Below, in pieces: positions 247 to 41,260 of a stretch of DNA of 44,102 nt. Both the position numbers and the translations under genes were made by a program. The DNA is taken from the UHGV virus genome UHGV-0016039. One strand, given 5' to 3'. Position 1 is the stretch's first letter. Every line of letters starts with the position of its first letter. The DNA comes from a virus. The notes under the pieces are model-generated. The model did not search any database. It saw only the letters and a list, made by a program, of their open reading frames with translations, and was not told the origin of the DNA.

Positions 247-765
247 ATGTTTGAGCAAATCGTAAACCTGATCACTCGCGGCGTAGTAGCACTGGAAACC
301 ATCGCTAAACATTATGAAACCGTCGGCGCTGCCGTTGGTAAGCAGGAAGACAAGAAGCCGTCTAAGTCCAAAAAAGAAGTTGTCGAAGATGACGACGATG
401 ACGCCGAAGACGAAAAACCGGCTAAATCTAAAAAAGCGCCTGCGAAGGGCAAGGCTAAGAAGGAAGTCGTAGAAGATGACGACGATGAAGAAGCCGAAGA
501 CGAAAAACCGGCTAAGTCTAAAAAAGCCCCGGCTAAAGGCAAAGGCAAGAAAGATGCCGATCCGCTGGCGGAGATGCGCGACGAGATCAAACAGTATGCC
601 GCGATTATTGCCGGTGGTGACGACGACGATGCGAACGACGAATTCGACGACCTGCTGGAATCGTTCGAGATCAAATCAATCGCCAAGCTGGAAGATGACG
701 ACGTCGAAGACTTCCACAAAGAGCTAAAAGAAATCGTCGAAACCTATTTCGAACTGGAAGATTAA
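247..765 (+). CDS. acidic, lysine-rich repeat protein (D/E tracts alternating with PAKSKKAPAKGK repeats); candidate early protein
   Basis: ORF track 67..765; ATG at 247 preceded by GGAGA at 236-240 (6 nt spacing); ATG at 67 has no SD; terminator immediately downstream. Confidence 0.55.
   Translation: MFEQIVNLITRGVVALETIAKHYETVGAAVGKQEDKKPSKSKKEVVEDDDDDAEDEKPAKSKKAPAKGKAKKEVVEDDDDEEAEDEKPAKSKKAPAKGKGKKDADPLAEMRDEIKQYAAIIAGGDDDDANDEFDDLLESFEIKSIAKLEDDDVEDFHKELKEIVETYFELED
343..556 (+). repeat. in-frame tandem repeat (~87-90 bp unit, 2 full copies plus a partial) encoding EDDDD-AEDEKPAKSKKAPAKGK
   Basis: near-identical DNA units starting at ~386 and ~473. Confidence 0.7.
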
Positions 766-1065: not shown

Positions 1066-1247
1066 TGAAATTCTTCGTGCTGGCAACATGCCATAAGACA
1101 AACGACCATTTCTCTTTTCTTGTTATTAACAAGGACGCCTCTATGTGCTGGGTCGATGCGCAGCATGAAGTGCACCGCCGCGTCGAACAGGCGGGAATGG
1201 CTAATATCTGTAAATATGTAATTGTCCAGTTTACAAGGGTGGAATAA
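1065..1247 (+). CDS. hypothetical protein (60 aa)
   Basis: ORF track; TAATG overlaps at both ends (1063-1067, 1245-1249) suggest translational coupling. Confidence 0.45.
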   Translation: MKFFVLATCHKTNDHFSFLVINKDASMCWVDAQHEVHRRVEQAGMANICKYVIVQFTRVE

Positions 1248-2677
1248 TGGCTATTAAACCAAAGCGCAAAACACAATCAGGAAGCAATACAGAACACTCA
1301 TTACTCGGGCCATCGGGATCTAAAAAATGGATGGGGTGTCCCGCCGCCCTGGTGGTCGAAAAAGATATCCCGAACGAATCCGGGCAAGCTGCGATTAACG
1401 GTACGTGTATGCACACTGTATCGGAGGTCGTGCTAAACCGTATTATTGCCGGTGAGAAGCTGATAACCGCGAAGACGTACAAAGGGTGCTACGTCGAGAA
1501 CGAGGGTAAGGGACCAGTAAAGGCCCACCCGAAAGCACCAAAAGGCGGCGTACTGGTCAACGACGATATGGTGAAACAGTGCGATGCGTACATCGACCAC
1601 TGGCGACCACTCCTCGAGGTGGCGGAGTTTGTTCAGCTTGAGATGCGCGCCGATCTGACCCGCGTCCTTCACTCAGGCTACGAGATCGACGGCAACAGGA
1701 TTAAAACGTTCGGTACTGCCGATATGGTCATGGTCATGAAAAAGACCGATGGGACGTACATGCTGATTGTTGGCGACCTGAAGACCGGGCGGCATAAGGT
1801 CGAGGCGAAAGAGAACAAACAGCTTATGTTGTACGCGATCGGACTGCTGCGCAAGCTGCAAACTATGTACGACATTACGACCGTTCGCCTGGTTATCTTC
1901 CAGCCGTATTGCGGCGGGGCGTCGGAGTGGGATATTTCGGTAGAAGCGCTGGAGATATTCGCGAAGTTTGCATCCAAGCGCGCTATTGCCGCACTGGAGG
2001 CGTATTCCCGAGGCAAGAAGGGACTTACCCGTGCCGACTTCCGTCCCAGCGTTGATGCGTGCCAGTGGTGCCGATTTGCGGATCAGTGTAGTGCCCGCGC
2101 TAAGGCCGCAATCGACACGATGACACCTCCAACGGCAACCGACGAAGACCTGGGCGACGACGTGAGCGTGGCGACCGAGGAAGAATGCGCCAATCACGAC
2201 CGCAATATGGTCCGCGAAGCCCGAAAGGCGGCCCGACGTGCGAAGCGTGGCAAGAAAGAAGCTGCCCCCGGCGCTATGAGCGCTGCGGAACTGCGCAAGG
2301 CTTATGAAGGCCTGGACGCAATGCGCCAGCACATCAAAGCTATCGAGTCCGCGGTATTCAAAGCGGTAATGGCGGGCGATGGCGAATCGCTGGGCCTTAA
2401 GATGGTTGCCGGTAAGGAAGGGATCCGTAAGTGGGCGGACGAGAGCGAAGTTATTGAAATCTTCACGAAGGCCCGGATCAAGCGCGATGTGATGTACAAA
2501 GAAACATTGCTCAGCCCTACGGATGCCGAGAAGGTATTGAAGGACGAGAAGCCGAAAGTGTGGGCGAAGCTGTGTGATAAAATCACGCGCGCACCGGCTA
2601 AACCTGTATTAGCACCCATTGACGACCCGCGTCCTGCGTGGTCCGAAGCTACCGACGAGGACTTAAGTAATGAATAA
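1247..2677 (+). CDS. PD-(D/E)XK nuclease, DUF2800/Cas4-like, with C-terminal Cys cluster
   Basis: N-terminal LLGPSGSKKWMGCPAAL, D..K core (IVGDLKTG), CQWCRF..C cluster; position upstream of SSB-like and PolA genes. Confidence 0.75.
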   Translation: MAIKPKRKTQSGSNTEHSLLGPSGSKKWMGCPAALVVEKDIPNESGQAAINGTCMHTVSEVVLNRIIAGEKLITAKTYKGCYVENEGKGPVKAHPKAPKGGVLVNDDMVKQCDAYIDHWRPLLEVAEFVQLEMRADLTRVLHSGYEIDGNRIKTFGTADMVMVMKKTDGTYMLIVGDLKTGRHKVEAKENKQLMLYAIGLLRKLQTMYDITTVRLVIFQPYCGGASEWDISVEALEIFAKFASKRAIAALEAYSRGKKGLTRADFRPSVDACQWCRFADQCSARAKAAIDTMTPPTATDEDLGDDVSVATEEECANHDRNMVREARKAARRAKRGKKEAAPGAMSAAELRKAYEGLDAMRQHIKAIESAVFKAVMAGDGESLGLKMVAGKEGIRKWADESEVIEIFTKARIKRDVMYKETLLSPTDAEKVLKDEKPKVWAKLCDKITRAPAKPVLAPIDDPRPAWSEATDEDLSNE

Positions 2678-2912
2678 AGTATTCGCAATCTTATTGATGT
2701 TTTTGCTCGGCGCGCTGGGCTTTATCCTGCAGTGCGTGCAAGGCGTGTTAATGGTGGCATGGATGATTCGTCATCCAACCAAATGGCTGGATGACGGTTA
2801 TAGCGAAGTTGCCGTCGATTGGGTGGGGAAGAACATCAACCGCCCGCCGTTAAGCTGGATCGAGAACGCTACCAACTACGTGACCAGAAATCTTTTTAAT
2901 GAAAATGCTTGA
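2670..2912 (+). CDS. small membrane protein (80 aa)
   Basis: ORF track; hydrophobic N-terminus AILLMFLLGALGFIL; overlaps stop of upstream gene. Confidence 0.45.
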   Translation: MNKVFAILLMFLLGALGFILQCVQGVLMVAWMIRHPTKWLDDGYSEVAVDWVGKNINRPPLSWIENATNYVTRNLFNENA

Positions 2913-3002
2913 CCGCTTAGGCGCAACCAAGTAGATTAGCAACCAAGCCGAACGGGGTGGCTTCCAATAACCCCGATACATGTGAAAATGAGGAATTGGA
3001 AA

Positions 3003-3791
3003 ATGGCTAAAGTCAACCTGAAAAATGTGCGCGTATGTTTCCTGAAAATTTGGGAACGTGATACCCCTAAACAGGATGGACAAAAACCGGCATACCGCGC
3101 CGTGATTCTTCTTGATAAAGAAGACCCGCAGGTGGACAAAGTGGAGGCGGCAGCGCGCGCAGTGCTCACCGACAAGCTGAAATCCGAGAAGAATGCCGAT
3201 AAGTGGATGGACCGCCACTACGCCCAGGATTCTAAGGAATGTGCAGTTCGCGACGGCGACGAGCGCGATGAAGTAACCGAAGAGTTCGAAGGCATGTTGT
3301 ACATCAACGCCAAATCGTTCAAACAGCCTAACATCCAAACGTCACTGGGCGAGAAGCAGACCGAGCAAGGTCTGACCGTAGACGGCGACGAGATCGAAGG
3401 CCAGGAGATCTACTCCGGTTGTTATTGCAATGTGTCCCTGGATATTTGGGCGTGGAACAATACCAACGGCAAGGGGCTCGGGGCCGGCTTGCTGGGTCTG
3501 CGATTCCGTGAAGACGGCGAAGCCTTCGGGGGTGGCGGGTCTTCATGTTCTGACGAAGACCTGGACAACGATGACGAAGACGAAAGCCCGCGTAAGTCCA
3601 AAAAGTCAAAACGTCGTGATGACGATGACGAAGACGACAAGCCGCGTAAGTCCAAAAAATCCAAGCGCAGCGATGACGATGACGACGACGACGAAGACGA
3701 AAAGCCTCGCAAACGTCGTAAACCACGCGATGACGAAGATGAGGACGACGAAGACGAAGACGAAGCACCACGCAAACGTCGCCGCCGTTAA
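3003..3791 (+). CDS. DUF2815-type phage ssDNA-binding-like protein with C-terminal D/E-rich and PRKSKK repeat tail
   Basis: ATG 3003 preceded by GAGGAA; N-terminal MAKVNLKNVRV..F motif; gene order DUF2800-DUF2815-PolA. Confidence 0.7.
   Translation: MAKVNLKNVRVCFLKIWERDTPKQDGQKPAYRAVILLDKEDPQVDKVEAAARAVLTDKLKSEKNADKWMDRHYAQDSKECAVRDGDERDEVTEEFEGMLYINAKSFKQPNIQTSLGEKQTEQGLTVDGDEIEGQEIYSGCYCNVSLDIWAWNNTNGKGLGAGLLGLRFREDGEAFGGGGSSCSDEDLDNDDEDESPRKSKKSKRRDDDDEDDKPRKSKKSKRSDDDDDDDEDEKPRKRRKPRDDEDEDDEDEDEAPRKRRRR
3556..3788 (+). repeat. in-frame charged tandem repeats (DDDDEDD-KPRKSKKSKR units) at C-terminus of SSB-like protein
   Basis: repeated gacga(t/c)ga.. and ccgcgtaagtccaaaaa units visible in DNA. 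Confidence 0.65.
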
Positions 3792-3809
3792 GGGCAAAGC
3801 CCACTATTC

Positions 3810-3834
3810 AAGCCCGCTTAATGCGGGCTTTTTA
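3810..3834 (+). terminator. rho-independent terminator
   Basis: stem aagcccgc/gcgggctt followed by ttt. Confidence 0.65.
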
Positions 3835-3849
3835 ATAGGACAATGAAAA

Positions 3850-4020
3850 ATGCGTATTAAAGCCAGCGAAGTAAAAGTCGGAATGCAAGTATGGTCCAAA
3901 TTGCTGGGCGAGTATTTCACCGTTGCCGAGATTCGCAACAACGGCGAGGAGATCACCCTTTCCGACGGTATCTCCTCCATGATCGGCAGCGCTGACGCCG
4001 TAGTGAGGATAAAGCAATGA
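3850..4020 (+). CDS. small hypothetical protein (56 aa), stop overlaps PolA start (ATGA)
   Basis: ATG 3850 to TGA 4018-4020 read by hand; below the ORF-track length cutoff. Confidence 0.35.
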   Translation: MRIKASEVKVGMQVWSKLLGEYFTVAEIRNNGEEITLSDGISSMIGSADAVVRIKQ

Positions 4021-6308
4021 AAGACTTCGAACGCCTATTTCTCGACACAGAGACATTCAGCGATGTGGACCTGAAGAAAGTCGGCGCTTACGCCTACGCA
4101 GAACACCCGTCAACCGAGATTATGATTTGCACCTACGCCATCGACGAGGGCCGCGTGCAGACATGGGACGCCACTGAATCCCCCACGATGCCGCGTGAAC
4201 TACGCAAGGCGCTCCGCCATGTAACCCGCAAAAAAGCAAAAATAGTGATGGCGAACGGCCTCCTGTTTGACCGCCTGGTTATCCGTGAAAAGTGGGGCAT
4301 TGACCTGCCGGTAAGCCAGATCGAAGATACCATGATTATGGCCTTCCGACATGCGCTGCCGGGTGGCCTTGATATGCAATGCCAGGTGCTGGGCGTGGAC
4401 GCAGAGCACGCGAAGGATAAGGCGGGCAAGGCGCTGATTAAACGATTCTGTAAGCCTACCCCTAAGACCTACAAAATCCGCCGCTACACGCGCGAGACTC
4501 ACCCGGAAGAATGGGCTAAATTCCTGCGCTATGCCGCGCTGGATACTATCGCAATGCGTGAAGTCTACTGGCGCATACCGGACTGGGGCAACTCCCCGAA
4601 GGAAGACGAAATCCTGCTTATCGACCAGTTGATTAACGACCGCGGTTTCTATGTGGACGTTGACCTAGCTAACGCCGCGATCAAGGCGGTGCAGGTGCAT
4701 AAAGAAGAATTGAAGGAAGAAGCCTGGGAGCGTTTTGGCGGTAAGCTAACCGGCAACGACTTCCTGCCAATCCTGCGTGATATCGCCCCTGCGTTCACTA
4801 TTCACAACGCGCAGAAATCAACGCTGAATGACTTGCTGGAAGACCCAGACTTCCCCGACGAGGGCAAGGTGCTCATTGAGATGCGCCTCGGTGCGTCATC
4901 AACGGCATCGACTAAGTACAATCCGCTCGTCAATGGCCTGTCCGCCGATGGTCGCCGCCGTGGTTGTCTTCAGTATGGTGGGGCAAAGCGCACGCTACGC
5001 TGGGCCGGTAAAGGCTTTCAACCTCAAAACCTGGCGCGTGGCGAGTACAGCGACGACCACGAAGGGAAGATTAAACGCCGCGAGGGTGAAAGCGACGTCT
5101 CGTTTTGGGTCCGGTCGCACATGCTCACCAACGGCATCAACTCCCTGTTACGCGGGACCGCACACTGGGCGTATGACATATCGAAGCTAACGGCATCGAC
5201 CGTTCGCGGGTGCATTATTCCTGCGAAGGGTAAGAAGTTTGTCGTAGCGGACTACTCCAACGTGGAAGGGCGTGGCCTTGCCTGGATCGCTGGCGAGAAA
5301 ACAGCGCTCATGGTGTTTAAGGCCGGTCGCGATATCTATTGTGAGACTGCCGGTAAGATGTTCGGCCTGGACCCGGACTACATTAAAGCCAACCGCAAGG
5401 ACTTACGCCAGATCGGTAAGGCGTGCGAATTGGGACTGGGCTATGGTGGCGGCGTCGCGGCGTTCTTGCAGTTCGCTAAAAACCTGGGCCTCGACCTTTA
5501 CACTATGGCGGACGTGATGAAAGGCACGTTCCCGGATCACATTTGGGCGGCGGCGAAACGTGGTTATGAGTACGCTCGCATTAACGAAGCGAAGCGCCCG
5601 CCGAAGCCGGGCAAGAAGGACGAGCGCCCAACATACATACTGCCGAAAAACGTATGGCTTACTTGTGACGCAATCAAACGTATGTGGCGTGAGGCTCACC
5701 CGAAGACGGTAGCCTTTTGGGCCGAGCTTGAGGACGCTGTGTTGTGTGCAATCCGCAATCCGGGCAAAGCATACTGGGCTGGCGCGAACGTTCGCCCGGA
5801 CGGTAGAAAAGCGCTCAAGATTGTCCGTACGAAGGCGAAGCACGACCCAACCTTTGACGAGGAGCGCGACGACCCGAACGCCGCGGGGTGGTGGTTGAAA
5901 ATTGAGTTGCCGTCGGGGCGCATCATGAGCTACCCCGGCATCGCGCTGTCTGTCACGACCGAGATTGACGAAGACACCGGCAAGAAGCGCACCAGCACAC
6001 GCATTAAATATCAGGGCGAGAATCAGACGACGCGCCAGTGGGGATTCCAGTATACCTACGGCGGCAAACTGACGGAGAACATCGTACAGGCGTTGTGCCG
6101 CGATATTCTCGCATGGTCCATGCCTGGCGTTGAAGCTGCGGGGTATAAAATCGTCCTGTCGGTGCATGATGAATTGATCACAGAAGTGCCGGACACCGAC
6201 GACTACACTACCGAGGAACTTTGCGCGCTGATGTGCGACCTGCCTATTTGGGCGAAGGGCTTCCCACTTGCCGCCGAAGGCGACATCATGTACAGGTACA
6301 GGAAGTAA
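4017..6308 (+). CDS. DNA polymerase, family A, with 3'-5' exonuclease domain
   Basis: N-terminal LFLDTETFS exo motif; RQIGKACELGLGYGGG (motif B K...YG); VHDELITEV (motif C). Confidence 0.92.
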   Translation: MKDFERLFLDTETFSDVDLKKVGAYAYAEHPSTEIMICTYAIDEGRVQTWDATESPTMPRELRKALRHVTRKKAKIVMANGLLFDRLVIREKWGIDLPVSQIEDTMIMAFRHALPGGLDMQCQVLGVDAEHAKDKAGKALIKRFCKPTPKTYKIRRYTRETHPEEWAKFLRYAALDTIAMREVYWRIPDWGNSPKEDEILLIDQLINDRGFYVDVDLANAAIKAVQVHKEELKEEAWERFGGKLTGNDFLPILRDIAPAFTIHNAQKSTLNDLLEDPDFPDEGKVLIEMRLGASSTASTKYNPLVNGLSADGRRRGCLQYGGAKRTLRWAGKGFQPQNLARGEYSDDHEGKIKRREGESDVSFWVRSHMLTNGINSLLRGTAHWAYDISKLTASTVRGCIIPAKGKKFVVADYSNVEGRGLAWIAGEKTALMVFKAGRDIYCETAGKMFGLDPDYIKANRKDLRQIGKACELGLGYGGGVAAFLQFAKNLGLDLYTMADVMKGTFPDHIWAAAKRGYEYARINEAKRPPKPGKKDERPTYILPKNVWLTCDAIKRMWREAHPKTVAFWAELEDAVLCAIRNPGKAYWAGANVRPDGRKALKIVRTKAKHDPTFDEERDDPNAAGWWLKIELPSGRIMSYPGIALSVTTEIDEDTGKKRTSTRIKYQGENQTTRQWGFQYTYGGKLTENIVQALCRDILAWSMPGVEAAGYKIVLSVHDELITEVPDTDDYTTEELCALMCDLPIWAKGFPLAAEGDIMYRYRK

Positions 6309-6843: not shown

Positions 6844-7062
6844 ATGAAAGAACATTACCGACTCACCAAGCTGGGCGAATGTAAACCGGGCGATCGCGTA
6901 TGGTTTATCGCGGGCATGAATGATCCGCTGCCGTTGACGGTGTGCTGGCAAAAATTTAAGAGCTTCCGGGCTACCGGTGTGCACATCGGACACGCCACCA
7001 ACTACGACGCTACAAAAAGGAACTGGAACAGTGAGACTGAAGTCTGGAAAAAGGCGGAATAA
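6844..7062 (+). CDS. hypothetical protein (72 aa)
   Basis: ORF track starts at TTG 6829; ATG 6844 is 8 nt after GGGAG. Confidence 0.5.
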   Translation: MKEHYRLTKLGECKPGDRVWFIAGMNDPLPLTVCWQKFKSFRATGVHIGHATNYDATKRNWNSETEVWKKAE

Positions 7063-7066
7063 CGAC

Positions 7067-8491
7067 ATGGCAAGATTCCGACGCCGCGAATATCAGAAGT
7101 TGATAACCGCGTTCATCCTCAAGCATAAGCGATGTAATATCTGGGCGACAATGGGATCCGGTAAAACCGGCGCGACAATGTGGGCGCTGAATAAAATGTT
7201 CCAGACTGGCGTCCTGTCCCATCATGAGGACCGCGTACTGGTGCTGGCCCCGCTGCGTGTTGCGTCGGGTACATGGCCCCCGGAACAGGAGAAATGGCGG
7301 TTCTCATCCCTGCTGGTCGTAGACGGCACCGGACCGGAGAAGGACCGTATTGCCGCGCTTGAGAGCGACGCTAACGTGGTTTGTGTTAACTACGATGTGG
7401 TTGAGTGGCTGGTCGACTATTACGGCGATGCGTGGCCCTTTACGGTCGTTGTTGCCGATGAATCGACTAAGCTGAAAGGCTATCGAAGCAAGCAGGGGAG
7501 CAAGCGCGCCCGCGCACTGGCAGCGATTGCACATAAACACGTCAAGCGCTGGATTAACCTTACCGGCACACCCGCACCCAACGGGCTGAAAGACTTATGG
7601 GGTCAGACGTGGTTTGTCGACGGTGGCGAACGCCTCGGCAGTAGCTATAAGGCATTTACCGACCGCTGGTTTATTAGCAAGCCTGTTAAGCCTGGCAGCT
7701 TCACTATGCAGCACGCCCCGCTCAAGAACTCCGAGAAGGAGATCCAACAACGCCTGTCTGACGTATCCCTTACCGTTGACGCGGCTGAATACTTCGGATG
7801 TGACAAGCCAATCTATACTCCGGTTGTTGTGGACCTGCCGAAGAAAGCCCGCAAGATTTATGACCAGTTCGAAGCGGAGCTATTTGCCGAACTGGAAAGC
7901 GGAACGGTGGAGGCGGCGAACGCGGCTTCGAAGACTATTAAGTGCCTTCAGCTTGCTTCCGGGGCCGTGTATAAAGTCGACGAAGACGGCGAGCGCACCG
8001 ACGAATGGGTGAAAATCCACGACGCTAAACTGGACGCGCTGGAAAGTATCGTGGAGGAGTTGAACGGCGCACCGTTGCTCGTCGCGTACCAGTACAAGCA
8101 TGACCTGGCGCGTCTCAAGAAGAAATTCCCGCACGGCGTAGCGATGGGTAAGGGTAAGCAAGGCAATAAGGACATGGAAGCGTGGAACAGGGGCGAGATC
8201 CCCATCATGTTCGCACACCCGGCATCGGCGGGTCACGGCCTTAACTTGCAGGATGGCGGACACCACCTTGCCATCTTCTCCGACACCTGGAACTATGAGC
8301 ATTTTTCGCAGATTGTGGAGCGTATCGGGCCGGTTCGCCAGATGCAAGCCGGACACCCTCGTCCGGTATTCGTCTACATTATCCAGGCGCGCGGAACACT
8401 GGACGAACTGGTCGCCGAGCGTCGCGACAGTAAGCGAGATATACAGGACGACTTGATGGAATACATGAAAGCTAAAAAGGCGCGCAAATGA
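7067..8491 (+). CDS. SNF2-family (DEAD/DEAH-box) helicase
   Basis: ATG 7067; Walker A ATMGSGKTG, VVADESTKLKG, LTGTPAPNGLKDLW. Confidence 0.88.
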   Translation: MARFRRREYQKLITAFILKHKRCNIWATMGSGKTGATMWALNKMFQTGVLSHHEDRVLVLAPLRVASGTWPPEQEKWRFSSLLVVDGTGPEKDRIAALESDANVVCVNYDVVEWLVDYYGDAWPFTVVVADESTKLKGYRSKQGSKRARALAAIAHKHVKRWINLTGTPAPNGLKDLWGQTWFVDGGERLGSSYKAFTDRWFISKPVKPGSFTMQHAPLKNSEKEIQQRLSDVSLTVDAAEYFGCDKPIYTPVVVDLPKKARKIYDQFEAELFAELESGTVEAANAASKTIKCLQLASGAVYKVDEDGERTDEWVKIHDAKLDALESIVEELNGAPLLVAYQYKHDLARLKKKFPHGVAMGKGKQGNKDMEAWNRGEIPIMFAHPASAGHGLNLQDGGHHLAIFSDTWNYEHFSQIVERIGPVRQMQAGHPRPVFVYIIQARGTLDELVAERRDSKRDIQDDLMEYMKAKKARK

Positions 8492-24617: not shown

Positions 24618-24932
24618 AGTCTCAGACGAGGGGGGCCATTGACCCCCGTCTAGTCTGAAAGACTGGGGTGCTGTCCCGCTGTCCCGATCGGCTAAAAACC
24701 GCGGCAGCACTGGCGGGGACGGGGTGCTGTCCCGCTTTGTCCCGCCCCTTGTTTGTCCCGCTTTTTGTCCCGCTTACTTTATGCAATAAAACTGCATATA
24801 TATGCGTATTTATGGGGTGAGACAAAACGGGGCGTCCCGCCTGTCCCGTTTTGAGTTTATGCAATGAAAGTGATTAGATATGCGGTTTTACAGAGGCGGG
24901 ACAAAACGGGACGTCCCGCCTGTCCCGCTTCA
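24618..24932. repeat. composite repeat copy A: GC hairpin, GTCCCGC/GCGGGAC iterons, TTTATGCA-N-TGCAT palindromes, internal ~75 bp tandem duplication
   Basis: near-identical to 41078-41260; at least 8 GTCCCGC copies. Confidence 0.7.
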
Positions 24933-41077: not shown

Positions 41078-41260
41078 CAGTCTCAGACGAGGGGGGTGCC
41101 AGACCCCCCGTCTAGTCTGAAAGACTGGGGTGCCGTCCCGCTGTCCCGCTCCTCTGGAAGCCGCGTCATCCGGGGCGGGACGGGGGTGCTGTCCCGCTTT
41201 GTCCCGCCTCTGGTCTGTCCCGCCTTTTGTCCCGCTTGTTTTATGCAGTAAAATTGCATA
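41078..41260. repeat. composite repeat copy B (hairpin, GTCCCGC iterons, ATGCA-N7-TGCAT palindrome)
   Basis: near-identical to 24618-24800 except for a 35-bp substituted core. Confidence 0.7.

Follow-up and report, generated by a model that had tools for sequence, protein, structure and literature searches.

A charged tandem-repeat tail on a predicted phage SSB and a co-varying peptide in its partner exonuclease

The DNA analysed here, called the window throughout, is a stretch of 44,102 nucleotides (nt) from a virus, UHGV virus genome UHGV-0016039, read 5' to 3' on one strand. Our subject is the gene at 3003–3791 on the plus strand, which encodes 262 amino acids (aa) plus a stop and is predicted to specify a protein (SSB) that binds and anneals single-stranded DNA (ssDNA), of the Enc34/T7 gp2.5 type with a long charged C-terminal tail. 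The region is matched at 80–99% identity by 157 phage records, nearly all of them Escherichia/Shigella Dhillonvirus phages of the HK578/SSL-2009a type. The gene stands in a replication/recombination module (genes at 247–765, 814–1065, 1247–2677, 2670–2912, 3003–3791, 3850–4020, 4017–6308 and onward) that encodes, in order, a phrog_3127 protein, small proteins, a DUF2800 PD-(D/E)XK nuclease, the SSB, a 56-aa protein, a family A DNA polymerase, a VRR-NUC-type endonuclease and an SNF2 helicase (6977–8491). Nuclease (1247–2677), SSB (3003–3791) and polymerase (4017–6308) form the duf2800-gp2.5-polA module that has been described as conserved (PMC8093625), and distant phage loci have the identical duf2800-SSB-polymerase order wherever those genes carry annotation.

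The SSB gene and the anatomy of its tail

The SSB starts at ATG 3003, 9 nt after GAGGA, with longer starts possible at GTG 2982 or ATG 2988. PF10991 (Enc34_ssDNA-bd, formerly DUF2815) covers aa 3–193 (E 6.3e-32; 111.1 bits against a cut-off of 26), phrog_112 matches at E 1e-51, and the nearest solved relatives are PDB 4klk, 4jg2 and Enc34 ORF6 (5odj/5odk/5odl). An AlphaFold2 (AF2) model built from 79 homologues has a confidence (pLDDT) of 94–98 at aa 1–170, 74 at aa 171–180 and about 50–55 over the tail. The strands and helices of its OB-fold domain (aa 1–181; 3003–3545, plus strand) agree with the fold of Enc34 ORF6, and Foldseek retrieved 4klk and 5odl at E 2e-12 (template-modelling score to target 0.70–0.76) and T7 gp2.5 (1je5) at E 1e-6. 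By profile and by OB fold alike, the protein thus belongs to the Enc34/T7 gp2.5-type family, in agreement with a preliminary description of this DNA that had called it an SSB-like DUF2815 protein. Preferential ssDNA binding has been demonstrated in the family for Enc34 ORF6 alone, and the near-identical SECphi4 protein is termed a predicted SSB. Within the OB domain, Thr56 is wild type in the window ('LTDKL'); the available part of the published escape-mutant table gives T56P in Retron-Eco8 escapers of the near-identical SECphi4/SECphi18 SSBs.

The tail (aa 181–262) reads SCSDEDLDNDDEDE-SPRKSKKSKRR-DDDDEDD-KPRKSKKSKRS-DDDDDDDEDE-KPRKRRKPR-DDEDEDDEDEDE-APRKRRRR. Its 82 residues comprise 38 D/E and 27 K/R (79% charged, net -11), with four basic blocks. 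Like charges are strongly grouped, in 8 runs as against 32.6±3.9 (minimum 18) in 20,000 shuffles, and kappa is ~0.64. Residues 181–262 are modelled as a predicted disordered, strongly charge-segregated polyampholyte, in which the single secondary-structure element is a one-turn AF2 helix at 184–187 (D-E-D-L; block pLDDT 69).

At the DNA level, the tail consists of repeats of 54–63 nt that encode four units, each an acidic run followed by a P-R-K basic run. Unit 1 is DEDLDNDDEDE + SPRKSKKSKRR (aa 184–205; 3552–3617), unit 2 is DDDDEDD + KPRKSKKSKRS (aa 206–223; 3618–3671; a copy of 54 nt with 83% DNA identity to unit 1), unit 3 is DDDDDDDEDE + KPRKRRKPR (aa 224–242; 3672–3728) and unit 4 is DDEDEDDEDEDE + APRKRRRR (aa 243–262; 3729–3788), all on the plus strand. 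Tandem Repeats Finder (TRF) reports a repeat at 3568–3692 (period 54, 2.3 copies, 87% matches), and a repeat search gives four in-register copies, in which units 1 and 2, like units 3 and 4, share 83% identity. Both agree with the preliminary description, which had seen tandem charged repeats in the DNA; its range for the array, 3556–3788, is right, because the four copies start at 3554, 3608, 3671 and 3734. Its single uniform DDDDEDD-KPRKSKKSKR unit has to be replaced by two subtypes, PRKSKKSKR twice and PRKRR twice.

The two ends of the tail depart from the family pattern to different degrees. The proximal motif S-D-E-D-L-D-N (aa 183–189; 3549–3569, plus strand) falls within the Pfam match and is our proposed docking peptide; no Dhillonvirus variant has lost it. 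The motif aligns with SADDFDDL or SEDEFEDL of typical members and follows the canonical proximal pattern 'acidic-acidic-F/L-x-D-L/I'. The canonical short, purely acidic tail is not found here, given 27 K/R in 82 aa, nor is the canonical acidic stretch with a hydrophobic/aromatic tip (DDDIPF or DGDF type): the protein ends in ...EAPRKRRRR. This basic tip, APRKRRRR (3765–3788, plus strand), shows no variation among the intact Dhillonvirus sequences aligned; SECphi4 has KPRKRRRR in its place, as far as the accessible portion of the published table goes. A phrog_15004 match to the tail (E 9e-5) was taken as a low-complexity match.

Variation of the tail among isolates and across the family

When phage genomes were searched with the tail and its flanks, the matched spans differed from the window by about -180 to +40 nt. 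We compared unit number in 16 Dhillonvirus sequences (13 genomes and 3 IMG/VR contigs). Four units are present in the window, Shigella 1b, SECphi18, Kente, Haito, BEK2-2 and SO-1, three in GeorgBuechner (exactly -54 nt), EK99P-1, LM40P1 and CHD5UKE2, two in P-GXEC-L2P5 and one in phage welsh, the SSB of which has 202 aa (...SDEDLDNDDEDEAPRKRRRR); unit 2 is the one absent from several 3-unit isolates. The SECphi4 SSB, as it appears in the published table to the extent available, also has three units. The 4-unit length was found in ~30/38 Dhillonvirus records of a spread sample, and the P0001 protein cluster has 537 members. Deletion junctions fall within repeated GAYGAMGAAGAYGAA stretches, all in frame, codon-sized indels are common in the D/E runs, and the proximal SDEDL(D/G)(N/D)DDEDE and terminal APRKRRRR are retained in all intact versions aligned. 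The preliminary description had suspected that the arrays are prone to expansion and contraction, and had proposed a comparison of copy number across related isolates. That comparison gives a range from one unit (welsh) to four (the majority), with in-frame GAYGAMGAAGAYGAA junctions, and bears the suspicion out. Because the cultured phage welsh keeps a single unit, plaque formation seems not to require the internal units.

Two kinds of irregular record were met in this comparison. The P-GXEC-L2P5 record (PQ843332.1; L011) is 88.6 kb long, about twice a Dhillonvirus genome, and partly duplicates the 3' end of the SSB gene and its terminator; this partial duplication is probably an assembly artefact. 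In vB_EcoS-22664B1 (L014 3243–4052) and P0008, the SSB gene enters the +1 frame in or before the repeats and continues past the normal stop into a basic MTKMK...-type tail. These entries represent sequencing errors or natural tail-null alleles, and what they translate is the open reading frame (ORF) at 3430–3846 on the plus strand. We regard the other-frame ORFs over the repeats (3328–3804 and 3422–3775 on the minus strand, 3430–3846 on the plus strand) as by-products of the repeats.

A codon alignment of the SSB genes from the same 16 sequences gave pairwise diversities at codon positions 1/2/3 of 0.045/0.025/0.259 in the tail and 0.025/0.008/0.179 in the OB fold, and synonymous/non-synonymous codon differences of 0.20/0.08 and 0.17/0.027, respectively. 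Silent sites in the tail are free to vary. This speaks against iterons or some other DNA element and places selection on the protein. The protein pattern of the tail is under purifying, yet more relaxed, selection.

The tail repeats bias a full-length search for the family: a pattern search with the complete protein was swamped by the low-complexity tail (600 stretches matched, 7 relatives). The OB-only alignment was too divergent for patterns, and distant phage loci were found by tblastn against phage genomes, in which 990 records have the SSB. The full-length search recovers relatives down to ~30% identity with alternating blocks, for example DDDLDDDDE-KPSK.KRR-SRDEDDEEE-RPRRRRR, with 1–9 basic blocks, and tips related to APRKRRRR occur across this clade (RPRRRRR, APRRERRRR). 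With the OB fold alone as query, an exhaustive search of 1.84 billion representatives gave 2175 proteins at E≤1e-3, and tails were scored in its best 150 representatives, 135 of which had a scorable tail. The typical family tail is ~27 aa long and purely acidic with a hydrophobic/aromatic end (...DDDIPF, ...DDLL). No basic block was present in 107/135, an acidic tail with a hydrophobic end was found in 98/135, and one tail of the 135 had a basic tip. We placed 141 OB domains on a neighbour-joining (NJ) tree, where the mixed-charge tails form 6 separate groups and the window SSB belongs to the largest; since the tree is rough, this is no more than an indication.

The mixed-charge tail is thus atypical of the family and marks this clade together with a few scattered lineages. 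A few distant members combine mixed repeats with a canonical ...DDEIPF or ...DDDDLPF tip (P0113, P0120). Guernseyvirinae have the one-unit form (SETP3 ...SVDDLEDDEDETPRRERRRNR, K1H ...SVNDLEDDEEDEAPRRERRRR), and on this sequence comparison an 'acidic run plus Arg-rich tip' looks ancestral for the clade, Dhillonvirus having apparently multiplied it. The preliminary description had held that its view of the tail would fall if the tail were absent from all homologues and dispensable; mixed-charge tails occur throughout the clade. A literature search for polyampholyte SSB tails found no description.

A peptide shared with the exonuclease and possible roles of the tail

The partner gene of the SSB, at 1247–2677 (plus strand), encodes a DUF2800/PD-(D/E)XK (Cas4-like) exonuclease (PF10926, E 4.9e-66; PF12705). 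Beyond the end of its Pfam domain (aa 463), the C-terminal peptide T-D-E-D-L-S-N-E (2651–2674, plus strand) copies the proximal motif of the SSB; the extreme C-terminus is ...WSEATDEDLSNE-stop. A second, internal copy, T-D-E-D-L-G (2138–2155, plus strand; TATDEDLGDD), lies in the inter-domain linker and is followed by an acidic and then a basic stretch (REARKAARRAKRGKK). The six-frame ORFs of ≥50 aa of the window contain the pattern [ST][DE][DE]D[LF][DGSNE] three times, two of them in the nuclease and the third in the SSB, a count that depends on the pattern chosen.

The two peptides change together from phage to phage. SSB/nuclease pairs are QQDFEAIDDD/ENDFEALD-stop (L004), MKDFDEGEEK/ERDFSDGNK-stop (L005), DDSDAWDD/LDDSDIWD-stop (L007), SIDDFDAL/LNDFDKL-stop (Phocaeicola BV741P2), ADFDGEDFEI/SDFEDEEFDV-stop (Bacillus Wes44), VDDFEDLS/VDDFEDLT (Caulobacter Jess A), DEDDYLDDLG/DEDDFSDLIG (Klebsiella N133) and VDDLEDD/TEDDLE-stop (SETP3). 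We scored each pair by the best ungapped BLOSUM62 segment that aligns the 22 C-terminal aa of the nuclease with the 24 aa at the start of the SSB tail, in 17 divergent phages that include loci L004–L007 and L021–L032. Cognate pairs had a mean score of 27.7 as against 19.2±4.8 for non-cognate pairs, and 0/100,000 pairing permutations reached the observed sum (p≤1e-5). The proximal motif of the SSB and the C-terminus of the exonuclease therefore co-vary between phages. We consider this co-varying shared peptide the most interesting product of the analysis. The literature naming both DUF2800 and DUF2815 describes gene order and no more.

Where might such a peptide bind? Crystal structures of Enc34 ORF6, T7 gp2.5 and the two DUF2815 proteins from structural genomics show the proximal tail resting on a neighbour's concave beta-sheet; this contact is the largest crystal interface (842 Å2), and Enc34 ORF6 without its tail binds double-stranded DNA (dsDNA) (PMC5686142). 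The acidic tails of T7 gp2.5 and of the gp4 helicase are similar and compete for identical polymerase patches. The sequences suggest that exonuclease and SSB present one docking peptide to one site, either the OB sheet of the SSB or a common partner. Since the two proteins share the peptide, competition for, or hand-over of, one docking site is probable. This docking reading fits the conserved duf2800-gp2.5-polA module.

What, then, is the tail for? We infer a docking target, an electrostatic role for the charged blocks and a function for the basic tip, and the account that we favour, though tentatively, is that of an SSB with a repeat-born polyampholyte tail of three modules and a shared docking peptide. 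The tail would have arisen by tandem duplication of a 54–63-nt unit and would still be resized by slippage or unequal recombination between units. The first module, proximal SDEDLDN (the family-wide 'DDF/LxDL' motif), may serve docking, SSB-SSB contact and coupling to the exonuclease; the shared peptide could dock on the SSB itself or on a common partner such as the polymerase. The second module would consist of zero to three extra spacer units, each an acidic run plus a Pro-Arg/Lys run. Its acidic runs may form a DNA-mimicking shield of the OB cleft, like the one that prevents dsDNA binding in Enc34 ORF6, and its basic runs may make contact with nucleic acid or pair up with the acidic runs of adjacent molecules, giving a multivalent tail with tuned cooperativity or self-association. 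Unit number would tune this module and be inessential for viability, given the natural 1–4-unit alleles. As the third module, the Arg-rich tip APRKRRRR would replace the canonical acidic-aromatic SSB tip in the clade. The acid-then-base pattern of the SSB tail recurs in the linkers of the exonuclease (TDEDLGDD...REARKAARRAKRGKK) and of the phrog_3127 protein, so that the three proteins may, speculatively, share an electrostatic mode of assembly.

Several known systems resemble parts of this arrangement. Phage Enc34 ORF6 (Enterobacter/Hafnia; PF10991 founder; 5odj, 5odk, 5odl) has the Pfam family, the OB-fold variant and the duf2800-SSB-polA context in common with the window SSB, and in both the disordered tail starts directly after the conserved ...DGExFGG. 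Its proximal tail contacts the neighbouring OB sheet in crystals and its tail confers ssDNA-over-dsDNA selectivity. In contrast to the window tail, with 82 aa, four basic blocks and an RKRRRR end, the Enc34 tail is ~21–29 aa long, purely acidic (16/29 D/E) and ends in ...WDEDEV. T7 gp2.5 has a homologous fold (Foldseek E 1e-6). Polymerase and helicase are bound by its tail, which also competes with ssDNA for the cleft; unlike the window tail, it lacks basic blocks and has an essential terminal aromatic residue (...DEDGDF). The gp2.5-like tail of T7 gp4, competing for identical patches, is a precedent for a peptide shared between nuclease and SSB, with the differences that in the window SSB the shared peptide is proximal rather than terminal and that the second carrier is an exonuclease, not a helicase.

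The SSB of E. coli likewise has an OB fold, a low-complexity, repeat-like linker of variable length and a terminal interaction peptide, and its linker tunes cooperativity and condensation. That linker is Gly/Gln/Pro-rich and nearly uncharged and the tip is DDDIPF, whereas the window linker is 79% charged and the tip basic. T4 gp32 uses a short Lys/Arg-rich 'LAST' peptide (KRKST) for SSB-SSB cooperativity and an acidic segment for partner binding. The PRKSKKSKR blocks of the window SSB are similar in composition to this basic N-terminal peptide, although gp32 belongs to an unrelated fold family and has its basic and acidic elements at opposite ends, without tandem repeats. As in lambda Exo-Red beta and RecE-RecT, the exonuclease gene adjoins the gene of an annealing/SSB protein. 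Cognate exonuclease-annealase pairs of these systems interact specifically, which is consistent with a peptide that co-varies within each phage; they differ from DUF2800/DUF2815 in belonging to other families and in using domain-domain contacts, the DUF2800/DUF2815 pair being known here from sequence.

A number of points weigh against the three-module account. (i) Phage welsh, with its single unit, is a cultured phage, and the repeats may contribute little. (ii) The tail undergoes three times as much non-synonymous change as the OB fold, in keeping with relaxed constraint. (iii) The motif pattern was drawn up post hoc; the permutation test is independent of it. (iv) The role given to the basic tip is pure inference, and binding of the peptide to the OB fold or to a partner is likewise deduced. 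(v) The C-tail of T7 gp2.5 is unneeded for Retron-Eco8 activation and the SECphi escapes lie in the OB fold or promoter, so that no published genetics, as far as the available part of the escape table extends, points to the tail.

A bolder form of the account, which we hold possible and rather unlikely, makes the exonuclease dock on the SSB, or on an SSB hub, via a tail-mimic peptide that would be a co-evolving 'address code' of the duf2800-gp2.5-polA module, and has the multivalent, Arg-tipped charge-block tail of Dhillonvirus/Guernseyvirinae, together with the exonuclease and phrog_3127 segments, drive an electrostatic self-assembly, or condensate-like clustering, of the phage's proteins for replication and recombination.

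Alternatively, low-complexity expansion may be neutral, the internal units being tolerated products of slippage, at most an inert spacer, and the proximal acidic motif alone mattering. As a view of the internal units this is plausible; as a complete explanation we think it doubtful. Cultured phages have 1 to 4 units, the D/E runs undergo small codon-level indels, non-synonymous divergence is raised as described, and the phrog_3127 linker can vanish altogether (P0349, P0365). Yet intact genes hold the frame and a strict acid/basic alternation, synonymous change still exceeds non-synonymous change, and the 4-unit form predominates. Moreover, all intact Dhillonvirus tails examined have the basic tip, which is also widely conserved across the clade, and mixed-charge tails recur in 6 separate lineages of the rough NJ tree.

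Variability of the tail could also be driven by host immunity, with length and charge variants evading defence systems that sense the SSB. Dhillonvirus SSBs (SECphi4/6/18) do trigger Retron-Eco8, Hachiman and ShosTA repeatedly target replication proteins, and both charged proteins, SSB and phrog_3127, are highly polymorphic in length. The escape mutations, on the other hand, are T56P in the OB fold or promoter changes; none was found in the SSB tail in the published supplementary table as far as it is available, and the same partial source places SECphi4 Retron-Eco8 escape mutants in the intergenic stretch upstream of the SSB gene. With the dispensability of the T7 C-tail for Retron-Eco8 activation and no link of tail variants to host range, immunity seems an improbable driver.

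That the repeats are a DNA-level element inside a coding sequence, such as origin iterons or a recombination or packaging signal, in the manner of lambda ori in gene O, is very improbable. Two replication-module genes do carry tandem DNA repeats, and 64% of the coding strand is purine, as such an element might have it. It is contradicted by third-codon diversity (0.26 in the tail, above the 0.18 of the OB fold), by unconserved unit number and spacing, and by distant homologues that keep the protein pattern with unrelated DNA; neither an A+T-rich flank nor inverted repeats were found at the SSB repeats. We rejected the origin/iteron reading of the lambda ori type on codon-position diversity and the 1–4 unit variation. 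Least probable of all is a programmed frameshift into the +1 frame through the repeats (ORF 3430–3846), since P0005 (phage vB_EcoS-22664B1) and P0008, which do read the tail in that frame, shift at different positions into an unconserved product, with no slippery site or stimulatory structure seen, and are better explained by sequencing or assembly error or by a null-tail mutation.

C-terminal tails of SSBs are hubs that organise replication and recombination proteins, and the accepted rule for them is an acidic tail with a hydrophobic tip. A clade of abundant coliphages and Salmonella phages breaks this rule: acidic blocks alternate with basic ones, and the tip is poly-Arg. The SSB family itself is known; in the literature searched, no description turned up of the non-canonical repeat tail with its basic tip and copy-number polymorphism, and the exonuclease/SSB co-varying peptide is new here. 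The claims of the preliminary description held up overall, and the family-atypical character of the tail, its basic tip and the residues shared with the exonuclease had escaped it. The natural 1-, 2-, 3- and 4-unit alleles are a ready series for the study of charge patterning in an SSB, and the co-varying peptide offers a testable hypothesis for how both halves of the very common duf2800-gp2.5 module meet, which bears on recombineering tools. Because the SSB is a known trigger of Retron-Eco8, the distinction between its constrained and variable parts also matters for studies of phage defence.

The upstream phrog_3127 gene and the rest of the region

The phrog_3127 protein (247–765, plus strand) comprises an N-terminal helix, a variable acid/basic repeat linker and an acidic helical C-terminal domain. 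Its identity was sought by a Pfam search, without a match; its PHROG function is unassigned and its AF2 model is poor (pLDDT 47). The gene contains a 90-nt DNA repeat in 2.1 copies at 369–551 (TRF); the preliminary description had placed the array at 343–556, and the repeat is real with the TRF extent instead. The linker is charge-segregated too (7 runs vs 23.5±3.3 in shuffles). Across Dhillonvirus the protein varies from 115 to 179 aa, with zero to three acidic blocks between conserved ends, and the linker is wholly lost in P0349 and P0365. Its array and that of the SSB tail have a common composition and a local 'ED-E/D-KP-x-KSKK' pattern, and the similarity vanishes in composition-corrected BLASTP. 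The wording 'related in composition', by which the two arrays had been linked, is therefore accurate as a compositional likeness; homology of the SSB and phrog_3127 repeats is not shown, and we rejected it, nothing being left after the correction.

The PHROG profile begins at MFEQ, so that a longer phrog_3127 ORF from ATG 67 is unsupported and ATG 247 is the likely start. A near-consensus sigma-70 match (TTGACA-18-TATCAT, 11/12) stands at 21–50, ~190 nt upstream of this ATG, and a terminator-like GC-rich hairpin lies at 774–793, directly 3' of the gene. An invariant 'NDEFDDLLE' of the protein resembles the family-typical SSB tail motif. Both repeat regions produce frameshifted or wrong-strand annotations in public phage records. 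In Haito_Bas83 (L020 517–1011), the phrog_3127 repeat region is annotated on the opposite strand, as an antisense low-complexity ORF, and in P-GXEC-L2P5 (L011 476–797) the coding sequence is frameshifted and annotated as separate short ORFs. In welsh (L009 379–1018), an extra small ORF (905–1018) is annotated after the gene.

Around the SSB gene, a sigma-70-like promoter match lies upstream at 2909–2937 (plus strand; 9/12 positions, weak evidence). A GC-rich hairpin with a T-run at 3810–3834 (plus strand), read by eye from the sequence after the SSB stop codon, is a probable intrinsic terminator. Our consensus scan for regulatory signals did not list it, and the equivalent site is labelled 'terminator' in LR999870.1. 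The 56-aa protein just 3' of the SSB (3850–4020) is phrog_10102; the portion available of an escape-mutant table gives an E21fs frameshift in its gene in a SECphi18 mutant (bioRxiv 10.1101/2022.08.27.505566). The DNA polymerase gene of Sodalis phage SO-1 (L016 4259–7447) and that of P-GXEC-L2P5 (L011 4317–7505) exceed the window gene (4017–6308) by ~900 nt; the annotation of SO-1 gives a group I intron with an HNH endonuclease, an insert that the window gene lacks. Farther away, a repeated TGTCCCGC(C)TTT(T) motif is clustered at 24670–24927 and 41135–41235; these clusters, which include a 79-nt tandem repeat (TRF), may be regulatory or protein-binding sites.

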